Assembly (NCBI GenBank): GCA_964010765.1
Contig: CAXGMD010000026.1
Coordinates: forward strand, 1-38,347
Length of the DNA stretch: 38,347 nucleotides
Direction of reading: 5' to 3'
Source: an uncultured bacterium
GTDB lineage: Bacteria; SAR324; NAC60-12
This document shows, piece after piece, positions 11,153 through 29,785 of this stretch (the stretch's first letter is position 1; every line of letters begins with the position of its first letter). The notes beneath the pieces were generated by a model. It was not told where the DNA came from. It ran no database searches and was given only the letters and a program-made list of their open reading frames with translations. The translations under genes were made by a program, and so were the position numbers.

Positions 11153-11185
11153 AGTTTTGCATAAGAATTTATTGGAGATGTTTTA

Positions 11186-11920: not shown

Positions 11921-12085
11921 AGTGTTTAAGTTTGGAAAGGGGAATTGATTTTTTTGAAGAGTTATCATTTCAAATATTTTGATGATTCCAATTTGGTCTT
12001 TTGAGGAATAGTCTCTAACAGATCAATTTGATCAATCGTTTTGGGTTGTTCAGGATCAGTAAATTTCGAAATCAGGAGTTAGTGG

Positions 12086-13302: not shown

Positions 13303-15096
13303 ATGAAAAAACTCCTATTTTTCACAAAATTAATTTTTCTTATAATTTTAACAGGTTATGCTCAGGCATACGAATTGACAATACTGCATATGAATGACCA
13401 TCACTCTCATCTATCTGCCGATACTAGCATGGATCTCAAGCTTGCAGGCAAAATGACTCGAGTACGGTCCGGCGGATTCCCAGCTGTTGTTCAGAAGTTC
13501 AAAACTTTAGAATCTCAAAATAGAAATGTGATTAAATTGCACGCTGGAGACGCTATCACTGGAGATCTTTATTTTACACTTTTCGAAGGTGAGGCTGATG
13601 CTGCTTTAATGAATGAAGTTTGTTTCGACGCTCTCGCAATTGGAAATCATGAATTTGATTTTGGAGATACTGGATTAGCTAAATTTTTGGACTTCCTAAA
13701 TGATGGTGAATGCAAAACAACTTTTTTAGCAGCTAACGTCATACCTGAACTAGGTGCCTCAGCTCTCGCCAAGAAAAGTGTAAATGATTATTTACTGCCT
13801 TATGTAATATTAGAAAGAGGAGGTGTCGAAATTGGAATCATCGGCATCGACATCGTTAGCAAAACAACCATTTCATCCAGTCCTGATTCCACGACGAAGT
13901 TTTTAGATGAAAAAAAAACTGCCCAAAAATATGTTAAGGAGTTACAAGATAAAGGAGTCAAACACATAATTCTATTAACCCATTATCAATACAAAAATGA
14001 CCTCGAACTCGCAAAATCACTGGATGGAGTCGATGTCATTGTTGGTGGTGATTCACATTCTCTTTTAGGGAATTTTTCCGAACTCGGGCTTAATTCTGTG
14101 GGGCCCTACCCGACTATCTCCTCAGATAAGTCAGGTCAACCAGTGTGTATTGTTCAGGCATGGCAATTTTCACAAATTGTGGGCGAGCTGATTGTTCAAT
14201 TTGACGAATTAGGTAATGTTAAGGAGTGTTCAGGAACTCCGCATATGATGTTGGCAGATAGTTTTAAGCGCAAAAATAGTGAAGGGGATCGAGTGGAGTT
14301 GGCAGGTGATGTTCGGAAGGATGTGATGTTGGCAGTTGAAGAAAACCCCCTTTTGAGTGTTGTTTCAGAGGACCCCGAAGCAGCTGCTAAACTTGCGACC
14401 TTTACTGAAGCAGTTTCCGAAAAGAAAGCTATTAAAGTAGCAGTTGTTGCAGAGAACTTATGCTTTGAGCGTATACCAGGACAAGGCAGGTCCAAGTTAT
14501 GTGATGTGTCAGTAACGTCCGTAATGGGCTCAGACATATCAAATCTCGTTGCACATGCATTTCGAGACATGGCAAAGGCCAGTCAAATTGCAATTCAAAA
14601 TGGCGGAGGTGTCCGCATTGACATTGGTAAAGGTGATCTGAGCATTGGTGATGCCTACCAATTACTTCCTTTCGCAAATACATTAGTTGAATTGGATATG
14701 TCTGGTGCAGAAATCCACGAAGTTCTCGAGGACGCTTTGGACTTGGCACTCAAACCAGATGGGTCATCAGGGGCTTATCCATACGCTGCTGGTTTAAGAT
14801 GGGATGTTGATGCAAGAAAACAAAAAGGAATGCGAATTTTAAACCTTGAATTCAAAGGCCCAAAAGACAACGAATGGGTCCCTATTTCCAAAACTCGTAT
14901 GTTTAAAGTTGTGACTAACAATTATATAGCCTCCGGGAAAGACGGCTATCTTACATTCGGTAAGGTTAGCAAGGAAGGCCGTGTTGTTGATACCTATTTG
15001 GATTATGCACAAAGTTTTGTTGATTACGCAAGGAAAGTAGGAACACTTAAGAAGTTGCCAGCATCTGAATATTCAACTCAGTCTTTCCAAAAATAG
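13303..15096 (+). CDS. Secreted 5'-nucleotidase, NadN/UshA-like (metallophosphoesterase plus 5'-NT C-domain)
   Basis: Signal peptide; ILHMNDHHSH, HAGDAITG, GNHEFD, GGDSHS, QNGGGVR, LLPFANTL, NNYIASGKDGY. Confidence 0.88.
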   Translation: MKKLLFFTKLIFLIILTGYAQAYELTILHMNDHHSHLSADTSMDLKLAGKMTRVRSGGFPAVVQKFKTLESQNRNVIKLHAGDAITGDLYFTLFEGEADAALMNEVCFDALAIGNHEFDFGDTGLAKFLDFLNDGECKTTFLAANVIPELGASALAKKSVNDYLLPYVILERGGVEIGIIGIDIVSKTTISSSPDSTTKFLDEKKTAQKYVKELQDKGVKHIILLTHYQYKNDLELAKSLDGVDVIVGGDSHSLLGNFSELGLNSVGPYPTISSDKSGQPVCIVQAWQFSQIVGELIVQFDELGNVKECSGTPHMMLADSFKRKNSEGDRVELAGDVRKDVMLAVEENPLLSVVSEDPEAAAKLATFTEAVSEKKAIKVAVVAENLCFERIPGQGRSKLCDVSVTSVMGSDISNLVAHAFRDMAKASQIAIQNGGGVRIDIGKGDLSIGDAYQLLPFANTLVELDMSGAEIHEVLEDALDLALKPDGSSGAYPYAAGLRWDVDARKQKGMRILNLEFKGPKDNEWVPISKTRMFKVVTNNYIASGKDGYLTFGKVSKEGRVVDTYLDYAQSFVDYARKVGTLKKLPASEYSTQSFQK

Positions 15097-15299
15097 ATTT
15101 CAATGGATTTGCAAAGCGCGTTCAAGTGATTTGTTGAACAAGCTTACACTTTATCGATCACACTAAATTCAATTAAGCTTTTGGTGAAATAAAACTTGAA
15201 TTAAGTTCACCTAGAACTTTTTTTAAATCTAAAATTCACTAGAAGTCACATATTACCTCACAGAACCTATAAATTTAACCTGCATCCTAACTGTATCGA

Positions 15300-16064
15300 C
15301 TAGTCAATCGTTGCCCCCCCATCAATAACGAGGTGGGCACCTGTCACGAAAGAGGCTTCATCTGAAGCAAGAAACAGAATGCCATTGGCTATCTCGACAG
15401 GCTCTCCCATGCGTTTCATAGGGGAACCTTGCCCGAATAATTTTCGGCCCTCCTCGACACTAACTCCAATATATTTCATATGATTTTCACTGGCTTGTGT
15501 AAAGATCGCGCCTGGGCAAACCCCATTTACACGAATGTTTTCCAAAGCCAGATCTAGAGCGAGGCAGCGAGTCATTTGCATGATCCCACCCTTGGATGTG
15601 TTGTAGGGTACAAAAGCAGGTTGTGCAATGAAAGAGCTCACAGAAGCAACATTGACGATCGCCCCACCACCATTTGCTCGCAGATGTGGTAAGACTGCCT
15701 GAACCATGTTAGCGTATCCAATGATGTTGACCCCCAAAACTTTTTGCCAGTCCTTTGCGGTAGTCTCTTCAATTTTTCCAAAAACAAATGCTGCTGCGTT
15801 ATTGACAAGGATCTGAAGACTTCCAAAGGACGAGATTGTGGCCTGCACGACTCTTTCAACAGATTTGGAATCAGATACATCAGCTTGCTGATACTCTGCC
15901 TGGCCCCCTGCGTCTCGAAGCATCTGTGCCGTCTTCTTGGCATCCTCTCCGTTGACATCAACAACCATTACTCTGGCACCTTCTTCCACAAATCGAAGGG
16001 CAGTTGCTTTACCGATTCCTGCACCTGAACCGGTGATGATCGCGTTCTTATCCTTTAACCTCAT
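15300..16064 (-). CDS. Short-chain dehydrogenase/reductase (probably NAD-dependent)
   Basis: TGSGAGIG, Asp after beta2 (VVDVN), NNAA, YNTSK catalytic YxxxK; last gene of the sugar operon. Confidence 0.9.
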   Translation of the reverse strand: MRLKDKNAIITGSGAGIGKATALRFVEEGARVMVVDVNGEDAKKTAQMLRDAGGQAEYQQADVSDSKSVERVVQATISSFGSLQILVNNAAAFVFGKIEETTAKDWQKVLGVNIIGYANMVQAVLPHLRANGGGAIVNVASVSSFIAQPAFVPYNTSKGGIMQMTRCLALDLALENIRVNGVCPGAIFTQASENHMKYIGVSVEEGRKLFGQGSPMKRMGEPVEIANGILFLASDEASFVTGAHLVIDGGATID

Positions 16065-16090
16065 AGCTACCTCTGTGCTAATACCTTCGC

Positions 16091-17002
16091 TTAAGCTCTG
16101 TAAATTCGCATTGCATTTAAAGCAAAGAGAGCTTCTTGTTCCTCTTGGCTTCGATGATCCACTAACTTCTGAAATTCTTGATACATGCTTTGAGTATCCC
16201 AGCCCTCCAGTTTTTCTACAGGATAGTTTGAAGCAAAGATGCAGCGCTGGACTCCGAACAAATCAATCACCTTATTGACCGTCTCCTTAATGAGGGAGTC
16301 CTGATGCCAATGCTTGTTTGGATATGTCAGCATTGAGAGTTTTATCGATACCTGGTCAAGATTTGCCAATGCTTGCAATCCTTCCCAGTATTTTTGCCCT
16401 TCCAAAAGATCATCTCTTTTGGGAGTGCCCAGATGATTTAGAATCACCGGAATTTTAGGATTTCTTTGAAAAATCTCAGCAGCTTTTTTGTATTGGTGTG
16501 GATTGCATTGTAAGTCAAATGAATAACCTGCTTCAGCTAATGTGCTAAAACCCTGTTGCCAGTTGTGCAAATCTAACAAGTTTCCGAGTCGACTGTTTCT
16601 GGGCCAGGATGGCTCATGGTTCAGGATCTGACGAATCCCACAGACGTTCGGAATTTTTTGGAGTTGAGCTAAGAGTGACGGCCATTCTGAACTTTCCAGA
16701 GGTCCTGTTGCGACAATCTGATAAGATAGTTTTGATTGAGAACATTGATCAGCAACCCACTTGGCTTCTGCTAAACATGCATTTTCAAACAGAGGCCCAT
16801 CGTGTTCAATATGGCATACGCTGACTGCCTCGACAAACGTTCCACCGATCAACTCAAAACCTTCCATGCGAAGATCAGCTTCATAGCGTTGAATCGTATA
16901 GATCGGATCGTCGTCGGGAGCAAACAATTGGGCTGAATCATGACCACTAGGGCTGTTTGGTCGTACATCCCAAATATGAAAATGTGGATCCCAGACTTTC
17001 AT
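16091..17002 (-). CDS. Amidohydrolase_2 / COG3618-like protein, copy A
   Basis: DPHFHIWD, GIRQIL, FDLQ, NHLG, IKLS, FASNYP motifs. Confidence 0.85.
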   Translation of the reverse strand: MKVWDPHFHIWDVRPNSPSGHDSAQLFAPDDDPIYTIQRYEADLRMEGFELIGGTFVEAVSVCHIEHDGPLFENACLAEAKWVADQCSQSKLSYQIVATGPLESSEWPSLLAQLQKIPNVCGIRQILNHEPSWPRNSRLGNLLDLHNWQQGFSTLAEAGYSFDLQCNPHQYKKAAEIFQRNPKIPVILNHLGTPKRDDLLEGQKYWEGLQALANLDQVSIKLSMLTYPNKHWHQDSLIKETVNKVIDLFGVQRCIFASNYPVEKLEGWDTQSMYQEFQKLVDHRSQEEQEALFALNAMRIYRA

Positions 17003-17029
17003 CCTTCCTCACTGTTGAGGTTAAAGATA

Positions 17030-19219
17030 CTAGCGAACAAAGGCTTCGTGCAAACCACCATCAACGTTGATGAGTTGCCCAGTTGTTCGGCAGAGACGCT
17101 CTGAGGCGAGCAGAAAAATTGCCTCTGCCTGGTGTTCTGGTGAGATCTGTGATTTGAGAAGAGTCCGCTGGGCATAGAAATCTGCCAGACGCTTTCTCAG
17201 ACTTTCAGTATCCTCCTGCTCGTCGAAAGGTAATTGATATTTGGAGAGTGAGGAGATCACTCGTTCTCTTGGGAACATGCTACTTCCTTCCACCACTGTC
17301 GCAGGTGCTAATGCATTGACCCTTACCAGAGGAGCCATTTGAATCGCTAATTCTCTGACTAAATGGTTCAAAGCAGCCTTCGAACTGTCATATGCCAGGC
17401 TGCCCACTTTACTGACGGTTGCGTTGACGGAGGAGGTTAAGATAAGGTTCGCAGACAATCCTTGTCTAAGCCAAACTGTGTGAGCCTCTTCAGCAACCAT
17501 CGCAGGGCCAATCACATTCACATCGTAAGTCTGACGCCACTGGCTATCCGATATGCGACCAGAGGAATCGGGTGGAAAGAACACTCCAGCAGTAATAATC
17601 AAAGTGTCCATCCCTCCGTAAGCCAACACTACATCCTCAAACAGCCTACTCAGACTCTCACGATTGGTCATGTCTGCTGAGCGAGCGAGGGTGGGACCAC
17701 AAGCACTCAGCCCAATGCCAGCTACTCCAATACCCACTCCTACCTTTTTCATTAACTCTTCAGCAGTAGCTTCTGCGGCCAGAGAATTAGCATCTGCGCA
17801 GACAACGTGGGATCCCTCTTTGAGTAAGCGATGGCAAACGGATTTACCAATCCCAGAGCCAGCTCCAATCACAACAGCCACTTGTCTGGACATCTCCTGC
17901 TCCGGAGGCATTCGCCGAAGTTTTGCTTCCTCCAGTAGCCAATACTCTATATCAAAGGCTTCTTGCTGATCGATGGCAACATATTCATCCACTGCTTCAG
18001 CTCCGCGCATTACTTCAAGTGCACAATTATAGAATTCAGCAGTAACTCGGCTCTCACTCTTGTTTTTACCCCAGGCAATCATCCCCAGTCCAGGGATGAG
18101 CACAACGCTGGGGTTGGTGTTCCGGAGTGCAGGAGAATCATCATGCTTACAACGCTCATAGTAAGCAGAATAATCTTGTCGATAGCGATCAAGCCCCTCC
18201 AGAATCAGCTCTTTCAAATCAGCTAGACTCTGATGGTGAGGATCCCACGGTACATACATCGGTTTGATTTTGGTTCGCAGAAAGTGATCCGGACAACTTG
18301 TCCCCAATTCTGACAAACGAACGACATCTTCTGAGTTGACGAAATACCTCATCATTTCATTATCCTGCACTGTCGCAACCAGTCGCTTATCGCTGGATAC
18401 TTGACCACGAAGCCACGGCAGAATCTCAACAAGTGTAGATCTGCGTGCGGATTCGTTTAGCTCGGAATAACGTATTCCTCCGAAAGTCAACTCACCTTTA
18501 TCGTGCTGGGCCAAGTACTCATCAGCTTTTTGGATGATCTCCACGGTCCATTCATAACACTCCTGATCGCTTTCAGCCCAGTTGATCACACCATGTCCGC
18601 CAAGCAATACTCCTCGTGCACTGGGATTTTCTTGGCAAATCTTCTGTAATTGAAGTCCCAGGTCAAAACCTGGTCGTTGCCAGGGAAACCAGACCAAATC
18701 CTCTCCCCAGATCTTTTTCGTCAGTTCCTCAGATCGTTTGGAAGCTGCAATAGCGATTACTGAGTTTGGATGCATATGATCGACATGCTTATGAGGGATG
18801 AAGGCATGTAAAGGAGTATCAATCGAAGCGGCCCTCGGATTCAGATTGAAGGTGCAGTGAGGATACATGCCAACCATCTGATCTTCGATGCTGGTCTTGT
18901 AGCCCTTTACTGGTGCAGAGGTATATTTGGGAATGAGGTCAAGTAGTTTCTGCTGGTACAGAGATGAGAAATTCTCTCGCTTGGAGGTGCGTAGATCTCC
19001 GCCAGAACCTTTGACCCATAGAACCTCGGTTTGCTCACCGCAGAGAGGATCAATTTCTTGAAGTTTTGCAGAGGTATTCCCTCCACCAGTGTTGGTAATC
19101 CGTTGGTCGGAACCCAGCAAATTAGAGCGATAAATCAGTTTGCCAACTGGATCAAGTGTACTTGCATAGTCAGCATCCCATTTCGGGTAGAGTCGATTCG
19201 TGGATGTGGGGTATTTCAT
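17030..19219 (-). CDS. rhaEW: Bifunctional rhamnulose-1-phosphate aldolase / short-chain (lactaldehyde) dehydrogenase
   Basis: RSNLLGSD-ITNTGGGNTSAK, VKGSGGDL, SIDTPLH, HMHP, GTSCPDHFLRTK, EYWLLEEAKL; C-terminal SDR GAGSGIG and YDSSK. Confidence 0.92.
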   Translation of the reverse strand: MKYPTSTNRLYPKWDADYASTLDPVGKLIYRSNLLGSDQRITNTGGGNTSAKLQEIDPLCGEQTEVLWVKGSGGDLRTSKRENFSSLYQQKLLDLIPKYTSAPVKGYKTSIEDQMVGMYPHCTFNLNPRAASIDTPLHAFIPHKHVDHMHPNSVIAIAASKRSEELTKKIWGEDLVWFPWQRPGFDLGLQLQKICQENPSARGVLLGGHGVINWAESDQECYEWTVEIIQKADEYLAQHDKGELTFGGIRYSELNESARRSTLVEILPWLRGQVSSDKRLVATVQDNEMMRYFVNSEDVVRLSELGTSCPDHFLRTKIKPMYVPWDPHHQSLADLKELILEGLDRYRQDYSAYYERCKHDDSPALRNTNPSVVLIPGLGMIAWGKNKSESRVTAEFYNCALEVMRGAEAVDEYVAIDQQEAFDIEYWLLEEAKLRRMPPEQEMSRQVAVVIGAGSGIGKSVCHRLLKEGSHVVCADANSLAAEATAEELMKKVGVGIGVAGIGLSACGPTLARSADMTNRESLSRLFEDVVLAYGGMDTLIITAGVFFPPDSSGRISDSQWRQTYDVNVIGPAMVAEEAHTVWLRQGLSANLILTSSVNATVSKVGSLAYDSSKAALNHLVRELAIQMAPLVRVNALAPATVVEGSSMFPRERVISSLSKYQLPFDEQEDTESLRKRLADFYAQRTLLKSQISPEHQAEAIFLLASERLCRTTGQLINVDGGLHEAFVR

Positions 19220-20697
19220 GGTAATTTCAGGAAGCGTTGATAGGCCTTATCCCAGATAGGCTGATCCTGGGGAAGATATTCTTCAATTTCAAAAGAGTTT
19301 CGGACGGTGTCGCGTATTTCTGAGAGGGAACTCAAATGTCCTAAAGCGAGACTTTGAATCAGAACGTTCCCAATTGCTGTTGCTTCGGACGGACCACTGA
19401 GGACTCTACGTCCAGTAGCATTGGCAGCTAGCTGATTCAGGAGTTTGTTCTTGGATCCACCGCCAACAATGTGGAGTGTTCTGAGGGTTTCACCAGTTGT
19501 CTCTTCAAGTTCGTCCAAAACCTTTCGATAGGAGAGCGCAAGACTTTCCAGGGAACTGCGGACGAAGGCTCCATGGCTCTCAGGGACAAGTTGTTTCGAT
19601 TCAATGCAGTAGGCTGCTATTTTTTCAGGCATTTCACCGATTGTAGTAAACCGAGGATCGTTAGGGTTGATTAGGGATTGTAGAGAGGATGCGGCCGATG
19701 CCATTTCAGTGAGAGTAGAATAATCATAAGAATACCCCTCACTTTCCCACTTGCGCCGACACTCCTGTACAACCCACAATCCACTGATATTTTTCAGTAA
19801 ACGAATACTATGGTTTAAACCAACCTCATTAGTGAAGTTGTATTGTCGGCTCTTGGGGGTGATCACGGGTGCATCCAATTCAACCCCTAATAAGGACCAT
19901 GTACCAGAGCTAAGATACGCCCAATCTTTTTGTCCACTTCGAGCAGGAGTACCAACGACAGCTGCCCCGGTGTCATGCGAACAACTTGCAATGACCTTGG
20001 TGTTGCTGGCTAAGCCTGTGCTCTCAGCAACTTGTTCAGTGATTGGGCCTAGTATCGAGCCACATGGTACAATTTCGGGGAAGAGATCATGGGGCAGTCC
20101 AAGGGCATCAATCAGAGGCCTGGACCATTCCTGCCTGCGGGGATTATAGAGCTGAGTTGTGCTCACCATGGAAGCATCACCTACTGCTACTCCAGAGAAC
20201 ATGTAGTTGAACCAATCACCCATTGTGATCAGTTTGTTAGCAAAGGTCAGTAATTCAGGGGACTCATCTTGGGCAGCAGCGAGTTGATAGATTGTATTGA
20301 TTGGCATGAACTGAATGCCAGTTTCATCAAAAATAAAATCTTCGCCAAGTTGCTTACGAACCTTCTCGTAGTAGACCAGATTTCGTGGATCTCGATAGTG
20401 CCTGGGTGGGGTGAGGATGGGTTCTTGGTCACGAATAAGAACAAAATCAAGTCCCCATGAATCAGCGCTCAAACTTGCAATTGGCAAGTTGAGCTGAACT
20501 GCTTTGCGTACACCAATCCGTAGCTCTTCAAAGATTTGTAGGACATCCCAACGAAGAGACTCTCCTACGGAAATGCCGCCTGTTGGAAAACGATGAATTT
20601 CCTCCAGTTGCAGTTGTCCTTGTTGGAGTATTCCAACCATGACACGGGCGCTTTCAGCACCACAATCCAGCGCAATATAAGCTTGTTTTTGAATCAT
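19216..20697 (-). CDS. rhaB: Rhamnulokinase (FGGY family)
   Basis: ALDCGAESAR, EIHRF, DSWGLDF, YRDPR, TGIQFMPINTIYQL, HDTGAAV, SSGTWSLLG, FTNE, VGGGSKN; ATGA overlap with rhaEW. Confidence 0.9.
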   Translation of the reverse strand: MIQKQAYIALDCGAESARVMVGILQQGQLQLEEIHRFPTGGISVGESLRWDVLQIFEELRIGVRKAVQLNLPIASLSADSWGLDFVLIRDQEPILTPPRHYRDPRNLVYYEKVRKQLGEDFIFDETGIQFMPINTIYQLAAAQDESPELLTFANKLITMGDWFNYMFSGVAVGDASMVSTTQLYNPRRQEWSRPLIDALGLPHDLFPEIVPCGSILGPITEQVAESTGLASNTKVIASCSHDTGAAVVGTPARSGQKDWAYLSSGTWSLLGVELDAPVITPKSRQYNFTNEVGLNHSIRLLKNISGLWVVQECRRKWESEGYSYDYSTLTEMASAASSLQSLINPNDPRFTTIGEMPEKIAAYCIESKQLVPESHGAFVRSSLESLALSYRKVLDELEETTGETLRTLHIVGGGSKNKLLNQLAANATGRRVLSGPSEATAIGNVLIQSLALGHLSSLSEIRDTVRNSFEIEEYLPQDQPIWDKAYQRFLKLP

Positions 20698-20746
20698 TTG
20701 GGAAAGATTGGAGTAAGGCCTGAACTTATTTGATTACTGGGGCATC

Positions 20747-20768
20747 ATTGGTTGAAATTTCAACCAAT
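20747..20768. promoter_or_regulatory. Perfect 22-bp palindrome between amidohydrolase B and rhaB
   Basis: ATTGGTTGAAA|TTTCAACCAAT; function (operator or RNA hairpin) unknown. Confidence 0.5.
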
Positions 20769-20770
20769 AT

Positions 20771-21688
20771 TTAGGAGGCAGCTTTATAAACTCTTCTAGC
20801 ATTTTCAGAAAAGAGTTTTCTTTGATCGTCCGGACTGAACAATTTGACTAGATCTCTAAATGCGTCAAAGAGCTTTTCCGATGGCCAATCCTCATTTAGT
20901 TCCACAGGAAAATTTGAAGCAAAAAAACAGCGGTCAACCCCGAAGGTATCAATAATTTTTAATACGGTTTCTTTAACCAGAAAATTATTTTGCCAATCTT
21001 TATCAATGTAGGACAGCATGGAAAGCTTGACAGAGTTTTGTGGACAATCAGCTAGAGCTTGGATTCCCTCCCAATAGAATTTTTCATCTTTTAAGTCTTG
21101 CAAGGTTGGACTTCCCAGGTGTCCAAGTACTAACGGGATTTCAGGGTTTCTTTCGGATAACTTTGCTGCTTGTTTGAATTGATGAGGGTTGATCTGTAAA
21201 TCAAAGATGAGTTGAAAATCTTTGAGTTTTTCAAATCCATCACACCATGCTGGGTTTTCAAGCAAATTCCCTAGGCGTTGATTCCTTGGCCACGAAGGTT
21301 GATAATTGAGAATTTGTCGAATGCCTCTCACTTTGTTGTGATAAGTGATCTTGGCAAGCAGGTCCGCTACATTGGGATTCTCAAGGGCCAACGTTGCGAC
21401 GATATAATAGTCTCTTGTTGAATTACTAATTTGCTCTGCGACCCACTTGGTTTCGGCAAGGCAGTGATCTGCATACTCATCACCGTTCATCTCAACATGG
21501 CAGACACTGACTGCTTCGACAAAGACTCCTCCTGTGAGATCAAAACCAGAATGGTCTAAATCTTTCTCAAAATCCTGAATTCCGTAGATTTCCTTTCCAT
21601 GTGGAGCAAAAAGAACACTTGGGTCGTGTCCACTTGGAGTTTCCGATGAAATATCCCAAATATGAAAATGCGGATCCCAAAATTCCAT
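20771..21688 (-). CDS. Amidohydrolase_2 / COG3618-like protein, copy B
   Basis: DPHFHIWD, GIRQIL, GHLG, VKLS, FASNFP; colinear paralog of 16091-17002. Confidence 0.85.
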   Translation of the reverse strand: MEFWDPHFHIWDISSETPSGHDPSVLFAPHGKEIYGIQDFEKDLDHSGFDLTGGVFVEAVSVCHVEMNGDEYADHCLAETKWVAEQISNSTRDYYIVATLALENPNVADLLAKITYHNKVRGIRQILNYQPSWPRNQRLGNLLENPAWCDGFEKLKDFQLIFDLQINPHQFKQAAKLSERNPEIPLVLGHLGSPTLQDLKDEKFYWEGIQALADCPQNSVKLSMLSYIDKDWQNNFLVKETVLKIIDTFGVDRCFFASNFPVELNEDWPSEKLFDAFRDLVKLFSPDDQRKLFSENARRVYKAAS

Positions 21689-21779
21689 GTTTAGTTTTCC
21701 ATAATTAACAGTTGTTAACGCAGAAAGTTTTGCTAGGTAGGATATTGGAAGATTAATCTACTTTGAAATGTGTTTAGAA

Positions 21780-21800
21780 GGTCGGGGGTTCGCCCCGACC
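21780..21800 (-). terminator. GC-rich hairpin just after the rhaS stop (weak terminator or 3' stabiliser)
   Basis: Transcript GGUCGGGG-CGAAC-CCCCGACC followed only by UUCU; the U7 run lies before the stem. Confidence 0.55.
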
Positions 21801-21807
21801 AAAAAAA

Positions 21808-22845
21808 CTACTTGGAGGCTGCCTCCACATTTGATTTGTCATAGACTGCGAAAGGCCCCATCAAAACCCGGAGCCCCTCGGCACGAGTTGGGTCTTTCTC
21901 GACGGTGTAATAGCCCATTCGACCCGCCTTAAATGTCTCACCTGGAATGCCTTCCATTTGACCTGTTGCAATCAGATAGGTTGCATAATAGGAGAGGTAT
22001 CCTAAATCCACAAAGCTCCAGAGGGCAAATTCTGGTGCGCAATCATTCATTGTGTAGCTTACCATTTCAGCTGGTAACCCAAGACCGCTTGTTTTTACTT
22101 GGTCACACAACCCCTCATCCTGCATCGCCTTAGCAGCAGCAGCAATTCCAACGGTTGTTGGAGCCATGATCAATTTCAGATTAGGATACTTGTCAACCAG
22201 AGCCAGTGCTTGATTGTAACTTTTTTCAGATTGATCATCGCCGTAAACAACATCTACCAAGTTCAGTGATGAATATTTTGGGGCCTTTAGGGCCTCTTTC
22301 ATTGCAGCAATCCAAGCATTCTGATTGGCCGCATCTGGAGATGCAGATAAGACTGCAAAATCACCACCTGCATTACCCATGATGTTCATAGCCATATCAG
22401 CCATCACAGTTCCAGTTTCGTTGAAATCAACTTGAGCTATGAAAAGTTGTTCTCCCTCAGCGGATGGAATTGGAGAGTCCCATGTTACAACTGTCATTCC
22501 CTTGTCGCGAGCTGATTTGGCTGCTGGTGCGAGTTGGTCCCCAGCATTATTAGAGATCATGATTCCGTCTTGTCCTTGGGTAGTTGCTGTGGTGAGAATC
22601 TCAATCTGGCCGGCCACACTATTTTCAGGCGTAGGTCCTAAAAATTCTAATTTCCCAGGGTTTTGCAACTCTTTATGAGCTTCTTGAGCACCCTGATTCG
22701 CCTGATCAAAAACCAAAATTCCCAAGAACTTAGGCATCAGGACAAGATCGGCCTTCATTCCTTTCTTTGCGACAGTGTGTGCCATCAGAATTCCGCTGGA
22801 GACCATCATTGCAACAGCAGCGACAGCTAGAAATTTTTTCATCAT
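21808..22845 (-). CDS. rhaS: Rhamnose-type ABC transporter substrate-binding protein
   Basis: Signal peptide; Peripla_BP_4-type with [45 protein letters not shown] (this is the transporter rhaS, not the AraC regulator). Confidence 0.85.
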
Positions 22846-22924
22846 GTGATTATCCCTTACTAGTAGGATTAATTAAATTTCCAATTGAGTAAATTAAAAG
22901 TCTGTGCATCAAAAATACTTGATA

Positions 22925-22948
22925 TCAAATCATAGGCAAACCTCCTTA
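22925..22948 (-). other. Perfect Shine-Dalgarno followed by a two-codon mini-ORF (ATG ATT TGA)
   Basis: Minus strand TAAGGAGGT (22948-22940), 6-nt spacer, ATG ATT TGA (22933-22925). Confidence 0.5.
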
Positions 22949-22956
22949 AAGATTCA

Positions 22957-23922
22957 TTATGAGCGAGATGTCCGGAGAGATTCCCAATAATTTTTCAGAT
23001 TGGGAACCATCGCAGAGAATATTAGTAACATACCGATTACACCAGTCTGAAGATGTCCTGTTATGTTACTTAAAGACATTCCGTTTCTCAGATAGAGTAC
23101 TATCAGAATAGAGAGGATTACACCATAGATTGATCCAGAACCACCGAAAATACTGACACCACCGAGCAGTACCATCGTTATGATGTCAAGCTCAAAACCA
23201 AGTCCCATATCTCCCCGAACTGAGCCCAGTCGAGCAGCAAAAAGAATCCCAGCCAAAGCAGATATGAGACCTGACAAAGTGAAGAGAATCAATTTGACAG
23301 CAGTGACATTAATCCCAGAATAGCGAGCCATGTCTTTATTAATTCCAATTACATAAACATATCGACCGAAGCCTGTGAAGCGGAGTACCATAACGGCAAG
23401 GATCAGCAGAAGAAAAAAAATAATCACAGCTAACGGAAGAGGACCTAAAATTGGCTGCTGACCAAGTTCTTCAAACCAGCTTGGAAAAACACGAATTGAT
23501 CGATCTTCTACTAAAACTCTGGCCAGGCCTCGGAAGCCAATTAGCATCGCAAGAGTGACGACGAGGGAGGGCAAGTTCATGAAAGTCACCCAAAAGCCGT
23601 TGAACAAGCCTCCTAGCATGCCGATCAGTAAGCAAATAGCTAATGCTGTTGGCATTGAAGCTCCTGCATCCACCAGCCATCCCAGGGCACATGCTGCAAG
23701 TCCCATCATTGAGGCAACCGAGAGATCAATCTCTGCGTTAATGATGATGAATGCCATGATCAAGGCGATGATGACCTTTTCAATCGCAAGCGTAAATAGA
23801 TTAATCTGGTTGTCAATACTCAGAAAAGCATCGGAATTTACTGCATTGACGCTAATAGTTAGAATCAGAACTAAACAGAGAAAGCTTTCCCAACTTCTTA
23901 GATACTTCCAAACATTCGTCAT
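22957..23922 (-). CDS. rhaQ: Sugar ABC transporter permease (RhaQ-like)
   Basis: BPD_transp_2: [45 protein letters not shown]. Confidence 0.82.
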
Positions 23923-23929
23923 CGATTTC

Positions 23930-24952
23930 CTAGGTTTCTGGAGAACTTCGGGCCTGTTTTCTAGCCCAATACAATTGAAAGCGCTTCATAATAACGCTGT
24001 CAGTTGCAACAGAAATTAAAATCAAGAGTCCCAACAAGGCATCTCGCCAGAATTCACTAATCTGCAACCAGCGGATCAGACTGTTTTCTAACAAATCGAT
24101 AAGAACTGCGCCTAAGAATGCTCCAAAGGCGCTCCCTGAACCGCCAAAGATATTCACACCCCCGACGACGACAGCAGCAACAGATTTAAGTTCAAAGCCA
24201 ATTCCGGCCACAACGGTAATGTTTCCAAAGCGAGCCAGGAACATGAATCCAGTTAAACCCGCAAGAGCGCCACAGAGCAGGAATGCTGTCAGGACCATCT
24301 TCTGATTTGCAAAACCGGCCATTTTTGCGGCTTCTGGATTTGAGCCGATTGCATAAAGCTTTCGACCAAAGGTTGTGTATTTGAGCACTATTTGGAATAG
24401 AATCACGACCACAACCATCCCAACGACTAGAACTCGTAGATGTAATCGGTCAAAGCTAATGAGGTTCAAGCTTGGGAGATCAAGCAGCCACCTCGGAAGG
24501 TTGACTGTCAATACGGTTTGAGCGTCTGAATACTCCACCAACAAAGTACGGTAAAGAGCCATTGTGCCCAAGGTGACAATGATGGATGGTATCCGGCAAT
24601 AGGCTACTAAGATCCCATTGATTCCACCCATCAATGTTCCAACTCCCACTGCGAGAAAGATTGCCAGCAATGGGTGCATATCACCATATTGTGATAGCTG
24701 ATACCCCACAAAATAAGCTGTGAATCCAACAATTGAACCGACAGACAAATCAATATTGCGTGTTAAAACAACCATGGTTTGCCCGATTGCCAAGACTGCC
24801 ATCAGGGCTACACTGGCAGAAACCCTGTTGAAAAGTCGGGCATTCAAGTAGTTTTCTATCACTGAACTGAATACGATCAGAACTAGTGCAATCAAGACCA
24901 GAAGGACCAACTCTCTCAGTTTTTCGGGTCGCAGTCCTTGAATGGCGTTCAT
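23930..24952 (-). CDS. rhaP: Sugar ABC transporter permease (RhaP-like)
   Basis: [56 protein letters not shown]. Confidence 0.82.
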
Positions 24953-26460
24953 GCAGTCTCCTGTAGTTCTCCCATAGCGAGTGACATGATAGACTCTTGA
25001 GTGGCCTGAGAACCATCCAAAATACCCATCTGTCTGCCCTCTCGCATCACCAATACCCGATCACTCATTGCTAGTACCTCTGGGAGATCTGAGGAAATAC
25101 AGAGAATCGCCATGCCTTGGTCAGCCAGTTCACGAATCATGTTGTGTACTTCTGCCTTAGCTCCGACATCAATACCTCTGGTCGGTTCGTCCAGAATGAA
25201 AACTTTTGGTTGCGTATTGAGCCATTTGCTGAACATTACTTTTTGTTGATTGCCTCCGGACAGTTTGCCGACCTCGTGTGCTAAATTTGGAGTCTTGATT
25301 TGAAGCCGGTTCTTGAATTCTTCAGCAGTTGATTTTTCTGACTCTGTACGGATCAAGCCCAGTCTTCCCAAGTATCTTTTCAAAGCTGGTAAGGTTATGT
25401 TTGAAGTGATGGAAAGTGGCATTGCCAATCCCAACTTTCTTCGATCCTCAGTCATGTACGCAATACCAAGATTTTGTGCAGCTTGAGGACTTCGAATACT
25501 TACGTTCTGCCCATCTAAATCAATGACTCCTGAGTCATTGGGTTGGATTCCGAACAAAGCCAGTCCAACATCAGTTCTTCTTGAACCAACTAATCCTGCA
25601 AAACCTAAAACTTCTCCCTCGTGCAGATCGAACTCTATTCCTGAAAAAACTGCCTCCTTGCTTAGATTTTGGACTGACAACACGCACTTGCCGTAGTTTT
25701 TCTTTTGCCTAGTTGCATAGAATTGATCGACTTCCCGGCCAACCATCTCCCTAATTAACTGTTCCCGGCTAAATTCCTCAACAGATCTGGTAGAAATGTG
25801 CTCGCCATCTCGAAGTACCGTGATTCTATCTGCAATCTCAAAAACTTCATCTAATCGGTGACTGATAAATAAAACAGCCACGTTTTCTTGTTTGAGTTTT
25901 CTAGCAACCTTGAAAAGTTGTTCCACCTCGTGGTTTGAAAGAGAAGCAGTGGGCTCGTCCATGATCAAAACTTTGACATTCAATGAAATTGCTTTTGCGA
26001 TTTCTACGGCTTGCTGAGATGCCAAGGTAAGTCCACTGGCTGGTGCCCGTACATCCAATATCATCCCGAGATCTGAAAGGATTTTATGAGCGTCTTCATA
26101 CATTTTTTTCCACTGAACCCAAATCCCTCTGGCTCGGTGGCTGATGAAAATGTTCTCAGCAACATCTAGATCTGGAAAGACCATTGGCTCTTGGTAAATG
26201 GCCGCAATCCCGAGAGCCTGAGCCTCCTGTGAGCTGCTAAGTTGGACGCCATTCCCAGAAAAAAACATTTCGCCGTCATCAGGTTGCTGGATGCCGGTTA
26301 GAATTTTGATCAGAGTGGATTTCCCTGCTCCATTTTCTCCTACTAGTGCATGGATTTCACCCGGAAAGAGTTCGAGAGACACCTCTTTGAGAGCTTGTGT
26401 CATATCAAACCGCTTAGAAAGATTACTAACCTTAAGAATAGGAGATGGTTTGGAATTCAC
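24949..26460 (-). CDS. rhaT: Sugar ABC transporter ATP-binding protein (two ABC domains, RhaT-like)
   Basis: GENGAGKST Walker [33 protein letters not shown] start; ATGA overlap with rhaP. Confidence 0.88.
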
Positions 26461-26481
26461 TTATTATTCATTAATTAATAG

Positions 26482-26799
26482 TCAGTCCATATGCCACTGA
26501 AGCGGCAGCAAGAAGGGGAAGTTTTTCTGAGAATCTATTTCGATCTTCATAATTGGAGTCATATACTCACCCCAGCGCCTATTCACATCACTAGCATTGA
26601 TCGCTGCAATTGTTTGCTCCAAGTCTTTCGTTTCAAAGTAGCCAAAAAGAGTAAGTCCATGCCGAAAAATCGAGTAGTTTTGAACTCCCGCCTTTCGAAG
26701 CATGTCAACCATTTCTGGCCATATTTCATCATGACGCTTTTTGTATTCATCCTCATAGCCAGGACGTACTTCTAAAACCCATGCAAATTGCTGGTTCAT
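26482..26799 (-). CDS. rhaM: L-rhamnose mutarotase
   Basis: EYKKRHDEIWPEM, NYSIF, LFGYFE, RWGEYM; 105 aa. Confidence 0.92.
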   Translation of the reverse strand: MNQQFAWVLEVRPGYEDEYKKRHDEIWPEMVDMLRKAGVQNYSIFRHGLTLFGYFETKDLEQTIAAINASDVNRRWGEYMTPIMKIEIDSQKNFPFLLPLQWHMD

Positions 26800-27680
26800 A
26801 CAACTTCCGGTTGAAGTTCAGTTGTTGGTGATGAAGACTGCCTTCTAAACTCCTGAATCCGATAAATCGAATCAGGATTCGGCGGGCGTGGAAACGGCAT
26901 GATGATATGTTCAGGCTCGCTCCTGGGGTGCAGGGTACTTCTCCCTAGTACAATCTTTTCTTCAAACTCTTGAAAGTCTCCGTAAACTTCAAAATCAACC
27001 AGAGGCCAGGCATCTGCAGAAGCGTATTCAAAAAGAAGTAGTCGACGTGGACGATTTGAAAAATTTGGACTAGACCCATGTAATGCTTTCACATGATGGA
27101 AACTTGCTGAACCAGCTGGACCTGTCAATTTTACTGCTGTGGAAAGATCAATGTTCTCAGAATCAGGATTAACTGATCCACTGAACACCCCTTGGAAGTG
27201 ATGGTTCAGAGTTTTGCCCTGATGGCTGCCCGGAACAATCATTAGCGGAGCGTTATTTTCATCAATATCATCAATCATAATGCCTACTGCTAAGAGATCG
27301 GCATTGGTATGCGGATAAAAAGCCCAGTCTTGATGCCAGTCAACAGCTGCACCTCCATTAGCCTCTTTTATGTTGAGCTTGCTGTTTCTGAAGCGGATGT
27401 TTTCGCCAATTAATTTGCTCAGAATCTCTAGTATCTTAGGTTTTCTGACAGCTGCTGCAAAAACAGGGTGTTGTTTGTGAGGCACCTTGATTCTTTGTAC
27501 CCTCGGATTCTGGCTAGAGTGATTTTGCTCCAGATCAAATTTTTCATCAGAGGTTATGTGATTCCTTGATTCTTCAATCAATTCATCTGTGGCTAGTTGA
27601 AGATCATGCACTTCTTCTTTGTTAAACAGGCCCTCAATACAGGTAAAGCCCGCTTGCTGATACTCCTCGATCATACTCAT
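26796..27680 (-). CDS. PhyH-family Fe(II)/2-oxoglutarate dioxygenase
   Basis: WHQD (HxD), NAPLMIVPGSH, GPAGSASFHH..LHGS, NRPRR; ATGA overlap with rhaM. Confidence 0.88.
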   Translation of the reverse strand: MSMIEEYQQAGFTCIEGLFNKEEVHDLQLATDELIEESRNHITSDEKFDLEQNHSSQNPRVQRIKVPHKQHPVFAAAVRKPKILEILSKLIGENIRFRNSKLNIKEANGGAAVDWHQDWAFYPHTNADLLAVGIMIDDIDENNAPLMIVPGSHQGKTLNHHFQGVFSGSVNPDSENIDLSTAVKLTGPAGSASFHHVKALHGSSPNFSNRPRRLLLFEYASADAWPLVDFEVYGDFQEFEEKIVLGRSTLHPRSEPEHIIMPFPRPPNPDSIYRIQEFRRQSSSPTTELQPEVV

Positions 27681-27687
27681 GATTTGC

Positions 27688-28746
27688 TCAATTACAGATG
27701 ATGGTTTCTTCTGATTTGGCGGATTTGTAGAGGGCTTCCAGAACCTGGACAGTTTTGAGACCTACCTCATGATTTCCACAATTTCTCCGACTTTTCCCTC
27801 TACAGATATCGATGAATCGATTCATCGATTCTTGTGTAGAATAAGAACCAAATCCACCATTCTTGTCAATCTGAACGAAGATGTCTTGTTTATCGAATCG
27901 TCTGATTTGCAAACGTTCCCGCTCTGGTTCTACATCTAAGAGCATCATTCCTTCACTGCCATAGATTTTTAGATCCAGTTGAGGTGGACAATGCTTTGGT
28001 AGTCCTGCTGCACCTGATAAGACAGCAGAGGCACCGTTGCCAAAACTAATAATTGCTGAGTCGTAATAATCTGCACCTGTCTTAGAATTTACTGTGCGAG
28101 CAAATACACTGACTGGTTCCAAAGATGTCACAAAAAAAAGCGCTGCAAGAGCATGTGAAAGCTGACCCCATCCATAGCCTCCAGCACGATTTGGATCTGC
28201 CCAAGTGGATGAATGAGGTCGGTACATGTGCTTTTCTGTTTCAGCCATGGGCTCACCACCAAAAAGATCCATTAATGCAGAAGACATATGTAAGGCAACG
28301 TGTTGGATTTTACCAATACTTCCCATTTCAACTTGGTCGGCAGCTGACTCCATGTAGTGGGTATGATTCAGCCCATAAGGTGTCATCAAAGTTTTTCCAG
28401 TTTTGCGCGCAATTGAACAAAGTGCTTCTGCATCTTCTGTCGAGGTTGCCATTGGCTTTTCCACCAAAACATGGCAGCCCTTTTCTAGGGCGTACTTCGC
28501 ATGCTCTGCATGGAAAACATGCGGTGAAGCTACGATTACACCATCTGGGTTGAGTGCATATAGCTCCGTATGATCTTCACTGACGAATGGAGTCTCAAAG
28601 TGTTTTTGGATTTGTTGCAGTTCAGTTGGGCCAATTCTAGAAACCCCAACAAGCTCTGCGTTTGGATTGGCGAGGATATGAGGAAGATGAAACTCACAGG
28701 CCCACCATCCAGCTCCAACCACAATAATTTTTGATTTTTTACTCAT
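27688..28746 (-). CDS. Gfo/Idh/MocA family oxidoreductase
   Basis: VVGAGWWA Rossmann motif, VIVASP, HVLVEKPMA, GGYGWGQLSH; first gene of the operon. Confidence 0.88.
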   Translation of the reverse strand: MSKKSKIIVVGAGWWACEFHLPHILANPNAELVGVSRIGPTELQQIQKHFETPFVSEDHTELYALNPDGVIVASPHVFHAEHAKYALEKGCHVLVEKPMATSTEDAEALCSIARKTGKTLMTPYGLNHTHYMESAADQVEMGSIGKIQHVALHMSSALMDLFGGEPMAETEKHMYRPHSSTWADPNRAGGYGWGQLSHALAALFFVTSLEPVSVFARTVNSKTGADYYDSAIISFGNGASAVLSGAAGLPKHCPPQLDLKIYGSEGMMLLDVEPERERLQIRRFDKQDIFVQIDKNGGFGSYSTQESMNRFIDICRGKSRRNCGNHEVGLKTVQVLEALYKSAKSEETIICN

Positions 28747-28975
28747 TGGGAATTACGGGATCAAATCATTCAAAAAAAATTGACCTCAATTTTTCAAAGA
28801 GAACTTTGCAATCAATTTTTGGTGGAAAAACTGAACGAATCACCAGATTATTTCAGGTTTTTTTCTAATTATGGGTTCAAAAATCTTGAACTAACCTGCA
28901 TGATATATGATATAGCTTGTAATACCTATAGCACTCCTTTGATTTGTTCAATAGAAAACTTGGGAGGTCAAAATC

Positions 28976-29659
28976 ATGATCACTTGGCAGGAATCTAATA
29001 TAGAGCGACCCAAATCATTGGTTCAGATCGCTGCGGATGCAATCAGGGGGGGGATTATACTTCGTGAGTTGGTCTTGGGGCAGCCTCTCACGGAGGCTGG
29101 TTTGGCAAAAACGCTTGGTATCAGTAAAACTCCGGTCAGAGAAGGCCTATCTCTATTGCGTTCAGAAGGCCTTGTAGTCGCTGAGCCTCATCGTGGCTAC
29201 CGAGTTTTCAGTATGACACAAGAGGAACTAGTCGATTTTTGTGAATTGCGTTTTGCCTTGGAATCCCAGGCATTACGGTATGCGATGCGACGTCAACCAG
29301 GAAAGCTTTCCAAACAGCTCCAGCAAATCTTGACCGAAATGGAGGACAACTTTAGTCCAGAGAATCGTGAGAAGTACTTAGAGTTGGACACAAACTTCCA
29401 CAAGAGCTTTTTCAGCTGTGCCGAAAGTAGATTCCTGCTTCAACATTACGAAAATATCAATGCCATCATTGAGACGGTACGCCACTATATTTCTGGGACC
29501 GATGAAGCAACGGGAAATGCTTATGAGGATCACAAAAAGATTACGGAATGCCTCATTAATAGTGATCTTGTAGGTGCACTTGAACATTTGGAAGCGCACA
29601 TTGTCAACTGGTCCAAACGCAGTAATTTGAAAGCAAATCTCTCGGAGGCCATCAAGTAA
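28976..29659 (+). CDS. GntR family transcriptional regulator (FCD domain)
   Basis: wHTH LTEAGLAKTLGISKTPVREGLSLL; ELRFALE, DTNFH, EDHKKI, LEAHI; GGAGG SD; divergent from the sugar operon. Confidence 0.9.
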   Translation: MITWQESNIERPKSLVQIAADAIRGGIILRELVLGQPLTEAGLAKTLGISKTPVREGLSLLRSEGLVVAEPHRGYRVFSMTQEELVDFCELRFALESQALRYAMRRQPGKLSKQLQQILTEMEDNFSPENREKYLELDTNFHKSFFSCAESRFLLQHYENINAIIETVRHYISGTDEATGNAYEDHKKITECLINSDLVGALEHLEAHIVNWSKRSNLKANLSEAIK

Positions 29660-29785
29660 ACGAAAGAAGATTGTTTTCACTTCCTGCCAATTTTCTCTTG
29701 CCATCCTCTCCTTCCAAGAGTACCAAATTTGCTAAATATCTGATCAAGTCCGTCCTATTTCCAAGAACCCGAGTAACGAATCTGC

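Follow-up and report, generated by a model that had tools for sequence, protein, structure and literature searches.

Two described pathways are the closest comparison for the locus analysed here, a putative L-rhamnose utilisation operon of an uncultured SAR324 bacterium. In the reconstruction by Rodionova et al. (2013; PMC3870299), the phosphorylative L-rhamnose pathway that uses RhaEW comprises an isomerase (RhaI or RhaA), the kinase RhaB, the bifunctional enzyme RhaEW, the mutarotase RhaM, and the RhaSTPQ importer, and the lineages analysed there have one isomerase type or the other. The non-phosphorylative route consists of the LRA1 dehydrogenase, the LRA2 lactonase, and the LRA3 rhamnonate dehydratase, followed by either the LRA4 aldolase or LRA5/LRA6 (PMC3870299 and PMC11199699).

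We analysed a 38,347-nucleotide stretch of DNA (the window; NCBI GenBank assembly GCA_964010765.1, contig CAXGMD010000026.1, positions 1 to 38,347) from a member of the GTDB lineage Bacteria; SAR324; NAC60-12. SAR324 bacteria are abundant in the ocean and uncultured, and a major part of marine polysaccharide carbon is in 6-deoxy sugars. The host genome (G000) is a 3.86-Mb metagenome-assembled genome (MAG) of 266 contigs that is 92% complete; the window is its contig 26. On comparative grounds, the operon in this window is a real, conserved, and selected locus and a mosaic variant of the known rhamnose pathways. We put the chances at about even that it is a functional L-rhamnose (6-deoxy-L-hexose) utilisation operon assembled from parts of both routes. 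Its RhaB/RhaEW branch, apparently acquired, is best described as having a feeder enzyme other than RhaA or RhaI. Among the papers listed for SAR324 and rhamnose, we saw none on this locus, and a search joining rhamnose, phytanoyl-CoA dioxygenase, and amidohydrolase returned nothing relevant.

Gene content and conservation of the operon

A listing of open reading frames (ORFs), combined with Pfam and NCBIfam searches, confirmed the arrangement reported in the first-pass annotation of this DNA: 12 consecutive co-oriented ORFs on the minus strand (15300-28746) and a divergent ORF on the plus strand (28976-29659). From the regulator to the end of the operon, the features are as follows.

28976..29659, plus strand: GntR/FCD transcriptional regulator, divergent (Pfam GntR and FCD)
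27688..28746, minus strand: Gfo/Idh/MocA NAD(P) oxidoreductase, here Gfo (Pfam PF01408/PF22725)
26796..27680, minus strand: PhyH-family Fe(II)/2-oxoglutarate (2OG) dioxygenase (Pfam PhyH, 109.6 bits)
26482..26799, minus strand: RhaM-family mutarotase (Pfam rhaM, 91.9 bits; TIGR02625, 77.6 bits, under the cut-off of 99.6)
24949..26460, minus strand: RhaT-like ATP-binding cassette (ABC) ATPase with two ABC domains (Pfam ABC_tran, twice; 520 bits on NCBIfam monosaccharide ABC ATPase models)
23930..24952, minus strand: RhaP-like permease (Pfam BPD_transp_2)
22957..23922, minus strand: RhaQ-like permease (Pfam BPD_transp_2)
21808..22845, minus strand: RhaS-like periplasmic sugar-binding protein (TIGR02637, 297 bits, under the cut-off of 342)
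20771..21688, minus strand: AmhB, a COG3618-type Amidohydro_2 protein (Pfam PF04909)
19216..20697, minus strand: RhaB-like FGGY kinase, rhamnulokinase-like (TIGR02627, 451.5 bits, under the cut-off of 527.95)
17030..19219, minus strand: RhaEW, bifunctional rhamnulose-1-phosphate aldolase/short-chain dehydrogenase (NF006189, 1049 versus a cut-off of 634; TIGR02632, 953 versus 568)
16091..17002, minus strand: AmhA, second COG3618-type Amidohydro_2 paralogue (Amidohydro_2)
15300..16064, minus strand: classical SDR, last gene of the operon (NF005559, glucose 1-dehydrogenase subfamily model, 253 bits versus a cut-off of 215)

RhaEW is the only locus protein to pass a curated NCBIfam equivalog cut-off. 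RhaB, RhaS, and RhaM fall somewhat short of theirs, the SDR passes a broad glucose 1-dehydrogenase model, and Gfo, AmhA, and AmhB pass no curated model. The closest solved relatives of RhaS are the rhamnose-binding proteins 4kvf (184 bits) and 5bq3. The functions reported as missing from the locus are indeed missing by Pfam and NCBIfam: its proteins have no match among isomerases, dehydratases (enolase-superfamily or IlvD), aldolases (HpcH/DHDPS), FAH hydrolases, or glycoside hydrolases. The same searches detected neither an L-2-keto-3-deoxyrhamnonate (L-KDR) aldolase nor an L-KDR 4-dehydrogenase with a diketo hydrolase.

The operon shares with the phosphorylative pathway a RhaSTPQ-type importer, RhaM, a RhaB-like kinase, and a true RhaEW. 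It departs from that pathway in its GntR/FCD-type regulator, in the failure to find RhaA or RhaI, and in the equivalog scores of RhaB, RhaS, and RhaM. Its likeness to the LRA pathway lies in candidate LRA1 enzymes (Gfo and SDR) and LRA2-type lactonase folds (AmhA and AmhB), to which sister operons add LRA3 and LRA5 orthologues. Unlike the LRA pathway, however, the locus lacks LRA3-LRA6 (LRA3 is encoded in a second cluster of congeners), its candidate dehydrogenases are partly of the Gfo/Idh/MocA type, its lactonase clade has an Asn in place of an Asp of the solved relative 4dlf, and it has an embedded PhyH gene that is no part of the described route.

Genomes of the same genus and five metagenome contigs have the same arrangement, with protein identities of 73-100%. 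Against three relatives (dS 0.5-0.7), the ratio of nonsynonymous to synonymous substitution rates (dN/dS) is 0.02-0.17 for all 12 operon genes, including 0.075-0.092 for RhaB, 0.062-0.075 for RhaEW, and 0.16-0.17 for AmhB, the highest in the operon. Since the arrangement is recurrent in relatives and all 12 genes are under purifying selection, it is not a chance juxtaposition. Housekeeping genes on both flanks (flagellar genes, fliM, pyrF, metX-type, hisA/F-type, and pepN) place the operon in the core chromosome.

RhaEW without RhaA or RhaI

RhaEW is 65-70% identical to proteins from several phyla that their sources name rhamnulose-1-phosphate aldolase/short-chain dehydrogenase, and its nearest homologues outside the genus come from Bacteroidetes, Ignavibacteria, Armatimonadota, Chloroflexota, and others. 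Judged by this similarity and by its model scores, it is a true orthologue of the bifunctional enzyme. RhaB scores 144.7 bits on the fuculokinase model, about one third of its TIGR02627 score (451.5). RhaEW exceeds its cut-off in only six of 88 genomes of the phylum, all of this genus, and the other matches to the model in the phylum (219-505 bits) belong to other bifunctional aldolase/SDR subfamilies. This distribution marks RhaB-RhaEW as a predicted genus-level acquisition.

Genome-wide searches for the canonical isomerases bore out the gap noted in the first-pass annotation. RhaA (PF06134) has no match in the host genome or in five congeners (G050, G052, G054, G055, and G056). For RhaI (TIGR02629, cut-off 647), the best score is 28 bits in the host genome, and nothing exceeds 34 bits in the five congeners; these matches (26-34 bits) all represent an AP_endonuc_2 TIM barrel in a ribokinase/FucU locus. 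Because neither isomerase was found in six genomes, one of which (G055) is 99% complete, the gap is unlikely to be an assembly artefact. The phosphorylative branch thus lacks its known first enzyme, since RhaEW is a true orthologue while RhaA and RhaI were not found. The result is an enzymological gap, given that the RhaB/RhaEW pair is under purifying selection.

The AP_endonuc_2 TIM barrel is the genome's only weak RhaI-like match; its scores are 77 bits for xylose isomerase and 44 bits for RhaI_grampos. Its locus (G000:C38:22011-30948, equivalent to L061:7012-15949) also encodes two ribokinase-like PfkB kinases, a FucU/RbsD protein, a CUT1 ABC system, and a DeoC/LacD-family aldolase, and looks like a complete isomerase-kinase-aldolase set for another sugar. 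We set this protein aside as the missing isomerase because its neighbours (ribokinase-like genes, FucU, CUT1 ABC, and DeoC) make dedication to another sugar more likely.

A second RhaEW gene is present in congener G055 (locus L101, G055:C110:3000-22999; gene at 10634-12835, 84% identical, 1044 bits). It is accompanied by a CUT1 ABC system, a SorC regulator, a XylB-like FGGY kinase, Fe-ADH_2, a HAD gene, and a FucA-like aldolase, with no RhaB. RhaEW-type enzymes may serve more than rhamnose.

Sister operons with alternative lower halves

We identified 59 loci in a PhyH-based scan, 11 of which (L002-L012) are of the SAR324 type, with PhyH proteins 68-97% identical. These loci have a common arrangement of GntR, Gfo, PhyH, RhaM, and ABC genes (Gfo is missing from L005 and L006) and occur in three versions. 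Past the binding-protein gene, the version found in this genus (V1) continues AmhB-RhaB-RhaEW-AmhA-SDR. The second version (V2; L007-L009) continues with an SDR (here SDR'), an enolase, and a single amidohydrolase (Amh1), for a whole order of Gfo-PhyH-RhaM-RhaTPQS-SDR'-enolase-Amh1; L008 has an additional second Amidohydro_2 gene and FucU. The third version (V3; L011, L012, and the metagenome locus L106) has just Gfo, PhyH, the ABC genes, RhaM, and Amh1. L005 and L006 follow the V1 order as far as the loci reach, with about 490 bp between the regulator (approximately 8827-9507) and PhyH (10001).

The V2 enolase is L-rhamnonate dehydratase (RhamD), scoring 530.7 versus a cut-off of 393 (NF011968). 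V2 SDR' matches PDB entry 6D9Y at 291.6 bits, a putative L-KDR 4-dehydrogenase that is 51-54% identical to characterised enzymes according to PMC11199699. These two assignments identify V2 as a non-phosphorylative L-rhamnose route.

The RhaS proteins of most V2 and V3 operons share 84-91% identity with that of the window (76% in L010), and GntR orthologues with 55-59% identity occupy the same divergent position in L007, L008, L011, and L106. Because the binding protein and the regulator are conserved, the imported ligand is most probably common to V1, V2, and V3. The comparison points to a core common to the SAR324 sister lineages that consists of GntR, Gfo, PhyH, RhaM, the importer, and one COG3618-type amidohydrolase. 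In this genus, RhamD and the L-KDR 4-dehydrogenase appear to be replaced by RhaB, RhaEW, AmhA, and the SDR; AmhA and the SDR are specific to this genus's operon version, as are RhaB and RhaEW. Catabolic operons can evidently be rebuilt by exchanging the lower halves of alternative routes, which calls for caution when pathway completeness is scored in MAGs.

Related combinations occur outside SAR324. Two alphaproteobacterial loci (L056 and L057; recorded as HIMB59 or uncultured alphaproteobacterium) contain Gfo, RhaM, two Amidohydro_2 genes, and PhyH together, and the annotated one, L057, also encodes an L-rhamnonate dehydratase (432.6 bits versus 393) and a different ABC system. In L113 (316-7198), a RhaB-like kinase (457 bits on the rhamnulokinase model) lies beside a UxaA/GarD-type dehydratase, a KDR-dehydrogenase-like SDR, RhamD, and Amh1. 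In L107 (5086-9912), a FucA-like class II aldolase (256 bits versus a cut-off of 264) is followed by RhaM, an SDR, a KDR-dehydrogenase-like SDR, RhamD, and Amh1. Because of L113 and L107, co-location of ‘phosphorylative’ and oxidative rhamnose genes is not unique to this genus. For the high-GC metagenome loci L115, L136, and L141, only tblastn matches were used.

Candidate dehydrogenase and lactonase steps

The best NCBIfam match of Gfo is D-xylose 1-dehydrogenase (80 bits, far under the cut-off), and Gfo is the sole candidate 1-dehydrogenase in the V2 and V3 operons. SDR orthologues (61-62% identity) lie directly before the KDR-dehydrogenase, RhamD, and Amh1 genes in L107, L108, and L110. These three loci have no Gfo match, so the SDR takes the LRA1 position there. 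A further SDR orthologue (70% identity) comes after the amidohydrolase in L115, a locus with Gfo, RhaM, and ABC genes from which PhyH is absent. From these neighbourhoods, Gfo and the SDR look like alternative, LRA1-like sugar 1-dehydrogenases.

AmhA and AmhB are paralogues with 53% identity. A profile of their clade recovered 590 relatives in metagenome contigs, some of which are closer to other Amidohydro_2 subtypes; 76 loci were kept, including 49 of at least 4 kb. In 14 of these 49 loci, the amidohydrolase adjoins a RhamD-like gene (52-83% identical to the V2 enzyme), usually together with a KDR-dehydrogenase-like SDR and RhaM. The AmhA structure model (pLDDT 93.2) has its best fold matches in 6uvz, in 4dlf/4do7 of Burkholderia multivorans (TMq 0.76-0.77), and in LigI. 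AmhA shares with 4dlf/4do7 and LigI a TIM barrel in which the N-terminal HxH-type motif and a conserved His align, but its identity to them is 18-19% and, unlike theirs, its gene is duplicated in the operon. We take 4dlf/4do7 to be the L-fucono-1,5-lactonase BmulJ_04915 and bacterial LRA2 to belong to COG3618; a literature search found no paper that places bacterial LRA2 there. Fold and conserved gene neighbourhood suggest that AmhA and AmhB are aldonolactonases.

The first-pass annotation had treated five enzymes of the locus as unexplained and expected them to be linked to rhaB and rhaEW in other taxa. In other taxa, the extra genes are linked instead to RhamD, the L-KDR 4-dehydrogenase, and RhaM. 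Because of this linkage to oxidative rhamnose genes, Gfo, SDR, AmhA, and AmhB are most simply read as dehydrogenase and lactonase steps of the oxidative route and are no longer unexplained; PhyH remains the odd member of the set.

Rhamnonate dehydratase in a second cluster

A second cluster in congener G054 (L182, G054:C179:1-11227) encodes a true L-rhamnonate dehydratase, the first of its two enolases (527.7 bits versus 393), which is 78% identical to the V2 enzyme. The cluster begins with Opp-type ATPases, a sulfotransferase-like gene, two Gfo genes, PhyH, and a xylose-isomerase-like TIM barrel, and continues with a third Gfo gene, RhaM, the RhamD enolase, a class II aldolase-family gene, and the second enolase. 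The gene set suggests machinery that handles a rhamnoside or a substituted rhamnose in the absence of glycoside hydrolases. The statement that neither known pathway is complete thus stands for the locus and fails for the genus.

A genome search for rhamnonate dehydratase, proposed in the same annotation, had a divided outcome, with a match over the cut-off in G054 and a best score of 271 bits in the host genome. The host match lies on a 2971-bp contig (C210), which preserves only the final 1.5 genes of an L182-type cluster (part of the aldolase gene and the second enolase) before it ends. Because C210 ends inside the cluster, RhamD is best described as not found, rather than absent, in the host genome.

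Other candidate parts of an oxidative route are scattered in the host genome. An SDR on contig C10 is 56% identical to the V2 KDR-dehydrogenase-like protein. Contig C2 encodes an HpcH aldolase that is under all cut-offs; the genome was not searched for an FAH-type hydrolase. The C2 cluster (G000:C2:64378-70201, equivalent to L062:5379-11202) holds this aldolase with an SDR, an enolase-superfamily dehydratase, a PhyH 40% identical to the operon PhyH, a divergent Gfo, and a PIG3-type quinone oxidoreductase.

Proposed pathway and evidence against it

In the route that we propose, L-rhamnose would be imported and mutarotated, as the families of the transport and RhaM proteins suggest. Gfo and/or the SDR would oxidise it to the lactone, and AmhB/AmhA would open the lactone to L-rhamnonate; both steps are suggested by fold and conserved gene neighbourhood. 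L-rhamnonate would then be finished in trans by the second cluster with the true rhamnonate dehydratase, as seen in congeners. In parallel, RhaB and RhaEW, judged by their orthology, would turn L-rhamnulose into dihydroxyacetone phosphate and L-lactate. The L-rhamnulose would come from an activity other than RhaA/RhaI, for which the candidates within the locus are the more diverged paralogue AmhA, or PhyH oxidation followed by reduction. We rejected as a leading idea a serial hybrid in which L-rhamnonate passes through a 3-keto acid and a decarboxylated 5-deoxypentulose to RhaB/RhaEW. By our own stereochemical reasoning, L-rhamnonate would give the L-erythro configuration, while rhamnulose-1-phosphate aldolase cleaves L-threo.

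Several observations weigh against this route. First, RhaB, RhaS, and RhaM all score below their NCBIfam equivalog cut-offs, which leaves room for a sugar closely related to L-rhamnose. Second, the route requires an isomerase activity to which no enzyme could be assigned, and RhamD was not found in the host assembly, where the best match is 35% identical and the C210 enolase falls short of the 393-bit cut-off. Third, AmhA and AmhB have an Asn where 4dlf has the Asp of its strand-8 ‘DWPV’ motif, an Asp that we presume to be catalytic. The Asn is found in all 16 sequences of the amidohydrolase alignment (A2) and in the solved 6uvz protein; the Asp is retained in the second Amidohydro_2 of L008 and of L057. 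Fourth, two dehydrogenases and two lactonases for one step look redundant, which hints at a second substrate or a new function of one copy. Fifth, the copies in two congeners look interrupted or incomplete. RhaEW of congener G051 (G051:C40:24698-26812) matches in three segments interrupted by in-frame TAA and TAG stops, and is either a pseudogene or an assembly error, and the operon copy of G055 (L100, G055:C109:21000-40999) lacks the four ABC genes while keeping the eight enzyme genes and the regulator.

The PhyH dioxygenase and a modified substrate

The operon PhyH has the marks of its family, as judged from alignment and the structure model: an HxD...H iron triad, a 2OG-binding Arg, and a jelly-roll fold. 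All 17 aligned sequences have the ligands H116-x-D118 and R212, and H196 is ‘nearly invariant’ among them. The structure model (pLDDT 85.9) most closely resembles the solved folds of GriE, proline hydroxylase H11, and EctD; lower in the ranking come the sugar-modifying EvdO1, AviO1, SnoK, and SnoN, and human PhyH takes rank 50.

We identified 22 PhyH-family matches over the Pfam cut-off in the 3.86-Mb host genome, versus none in 14 control genomes. Examples are C11:42922-43578, C24:30828-31427, C89:2854-3471 and 5422-6030, C134:1631-2203, and C2:67238-67855. Within 5 kb of these 22 genes, a family-level survey detected Gfo near five, SDR near seven, HpcH near three, and enolase near two. A review of SAR324 interprets the PhyH genes found in its marine members as serving phytol degradation (PMC9031357). 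For the operon PhyH, we consider phytanoyl-CoA 2-hydroxylase an unlikely function, given the sugar-operon context in all 11 SAR324-type loci and the low fold rank of human PhyH. Several PhyH genes of this genus are embedded in sugar or sugar-acid operons, and for at least three of the paralogues these contexts argue against phytol degradation. We propose that the operon enzyme acts on a sugar or a sugar derivative rather than on phytanoyl-CoA.

One alternative to the proposed route builds on this enzyme. It holds that the imported compound is a substituted 6-deoxyhexose (O-methyl, sulfated, or amino rhamnose), that PhyH strips the substituent oxidatively, and that Gfo or the SDR reduces the resulting keto-sugar to L-rhamnose. 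The idea of an O-methylated or sulfated substrate, also raised in the first reading of the sequence, has the constant presence of PhyH as its sole basis. This gene is the one extra common to all the SAR324-type loci, whatever the downstream route, and it recurs in the alphaproteobacterial L056 and L057. Its intact Fe/2OG ligands, the 22-gene expansion with sugar-type oxidoreductases, HpcH, and enolase near some members, and the PhyH-containing L182 cluster, with its three Gfo genes, TIM barrel, sulfotransferase-like gene, RhaM, and RhamD, are all consistent with the idea. A precedent exists in kanamycin biosynthesis, where the 2OG dioxygenase KanJ and the NADPH reductase KanK act on a sugar carbon and swap a substituent for OH (PMC5533434). 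As in KanJ/KanK, a 2OG dioxygenase stands beside a nicotinamide-dependent oxidoreductase in a sugar context, and five of the 22 PhyH genes have such a pairing. In contrast to KanJ/KanK, however, the operon context is catabolic rather than biosynthetic, and KanJ is not among the sequence matches to solved structures or the fold matches listed for PhyH.

We consider this alternative unlikely. The nearest folds are amino-acid and ectoine hydroxylases, and RhaS is an ordinary relative of rhamnose-binding proteins. The Gfo-PhyH pairing is not obligate, as L005 and L006 lack Gfo and L115 has Gfo without PhyH. PhyH homologues with 40-50% identity, mostly from alphaproteobacterial records (46 of the 59 loci), occur largely in non-sugar contexts with SBP_bac_5, formamidase, TRAP, BCCT, and GMC oxidoreductase genes, and contexts so varied were unhelpful as a functional clue. 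A literature search on oxidative demethylation of O-methyl rhamnose found no paper, and the missing isomerase would be left unsupplied.

An isomerase bypass

A second alternative addresses the isomerase itself and sees the extra enzymes as a bypass that feeds RhaB/RhaEW. PhyH could oxidise C2 of L-rhamnose to a 2-keto-aldose that Gfo or the SDR reduces at C1, an SDR/Gfo pair could work through L-rhamnitol, or one amidohydrolase paralogue could have turned into an aldose-ketose isomerase. Uronate isomerase is an aldose-ketose isomerase of the amidohydrolase superfamily. The persistence of strongly selected RhaB and RhaEW in the six genus genomes in which RhaA/RhaI were not found favours a bypass. 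The two amidohydrolase paralogues flank RhaB-RhaEW, and AmhA and the SDR are as genus-specific as the pair that they would feed.

The history of the paralogues is in part consistent with such a change. A quick maximum-likelihood tree places the clades of AmhA and AmhB (six sequences each) on long stems (0.49 and 0.43), in an unresolved polytomy together with Amh1, the single-copy protein of V2 and V3. Among 129 sites that are conserved across 15 single-copy relatives, nine carry clade-specific changes in AmhA, three of them beside the HLG motif, and four do so in AmhB. However, neither paralogue has lost any residue that is invariant in the family alignment. The AmhA changes are compatible with a shift in specificity, without demonstrating a new reaction.

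On balance, we give the bypass only a small chance. Operons that lack RhaB/RhaEW and encode rhamnonate dehydratase also combine PhyH, Gfo, and Amh1, so the ancestral role of these three was not the making of rhamnulose. SDR orthologues are located in oxidative clusters, true RhaEW is restricted to the six genomes noted above, and an isomerisation that consumes 2OG would be costly.

Elements of the two alternatives can be combined. PhyH may be a new sugar-directed Fe(II)/2OG enzyme of SAR324 and HIMB59-labelled alphaproteobacteria that unmasks O-methyl, sulfated, or amino groups or oxidises a ring carbon, with L-rhamnulose reaching RhaB/RhaEW independently of an isomerase or by a non-orthologous route, by way of PhyH and a reductase or of a neofunctionalised AmhA. 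We offer this combination tentatively, as something possible at clearly less than even chances. If it is true, the 22-member PhyH expansion would equip the genome for modified deoxy-sugars in marine dissolved organic matter rather than for phytol degradation.

Decay, expression, and operon boundaries

It is very unlikely that the locus is ordinary or decaying, with a canonical isomerase in unassembled sequence or RhaB/RhaEW as a recently acquired, partnerless fragment being lost: although all genus genomes are fragmented MAGs (110-650 contigs), the host assembly loses its RhamD cluster at a contig end, G051 and G055 have the irregularities described above, and genome G057 (94% complete) has neither PhyH nor RhaEW, the isomerase would have to be missed in six genomes, one of them nearly complete, dN/dS for RhaB and RhaEW is just 0.06-0.09, more than 50 near-identical RhaEW variants are found on separate contigs, and the operon is present in contigs of four metatranscriptome libraries.

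These libraries, from four studies, yielded contigs that cover 29-30 of the 30 bins of 14800-29800 at 95-99% identity and bridge the SDR-AmhA, AmhA-RhaEW, RhaEW-RhaB, AmhB-RhaS, and RhaP-RhaT-RhaM-PhyH junctions. They are weak evidence of expression, because DNA can be present in such libraries. Contig depth was higher over RhaS in two runs, an observation that we did not use as evidence.

Consensus scans of 15000-29800 for promoters and terminators gave 18 sites versus 22.6 and 15 versus 13.2 in shuffled sequence; because such sites are no commoner than in shuffled sequence, no sub-operon structure was drawn. The G+C content over RhaEW and RhaB (0.465-0.472) is slightly above that of the importer genes (0.43-0.45).

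In three of the RNA-library runs, the match between the contigs and the window stops at 15301, immediately past the stop codon of the SDR, and the same unrelated sequence is found upstream of 15301 in the contigs of all three. The strain in those samples has a different neighbour past the SDR, so the boundary of the operon coincides with a synteny break.

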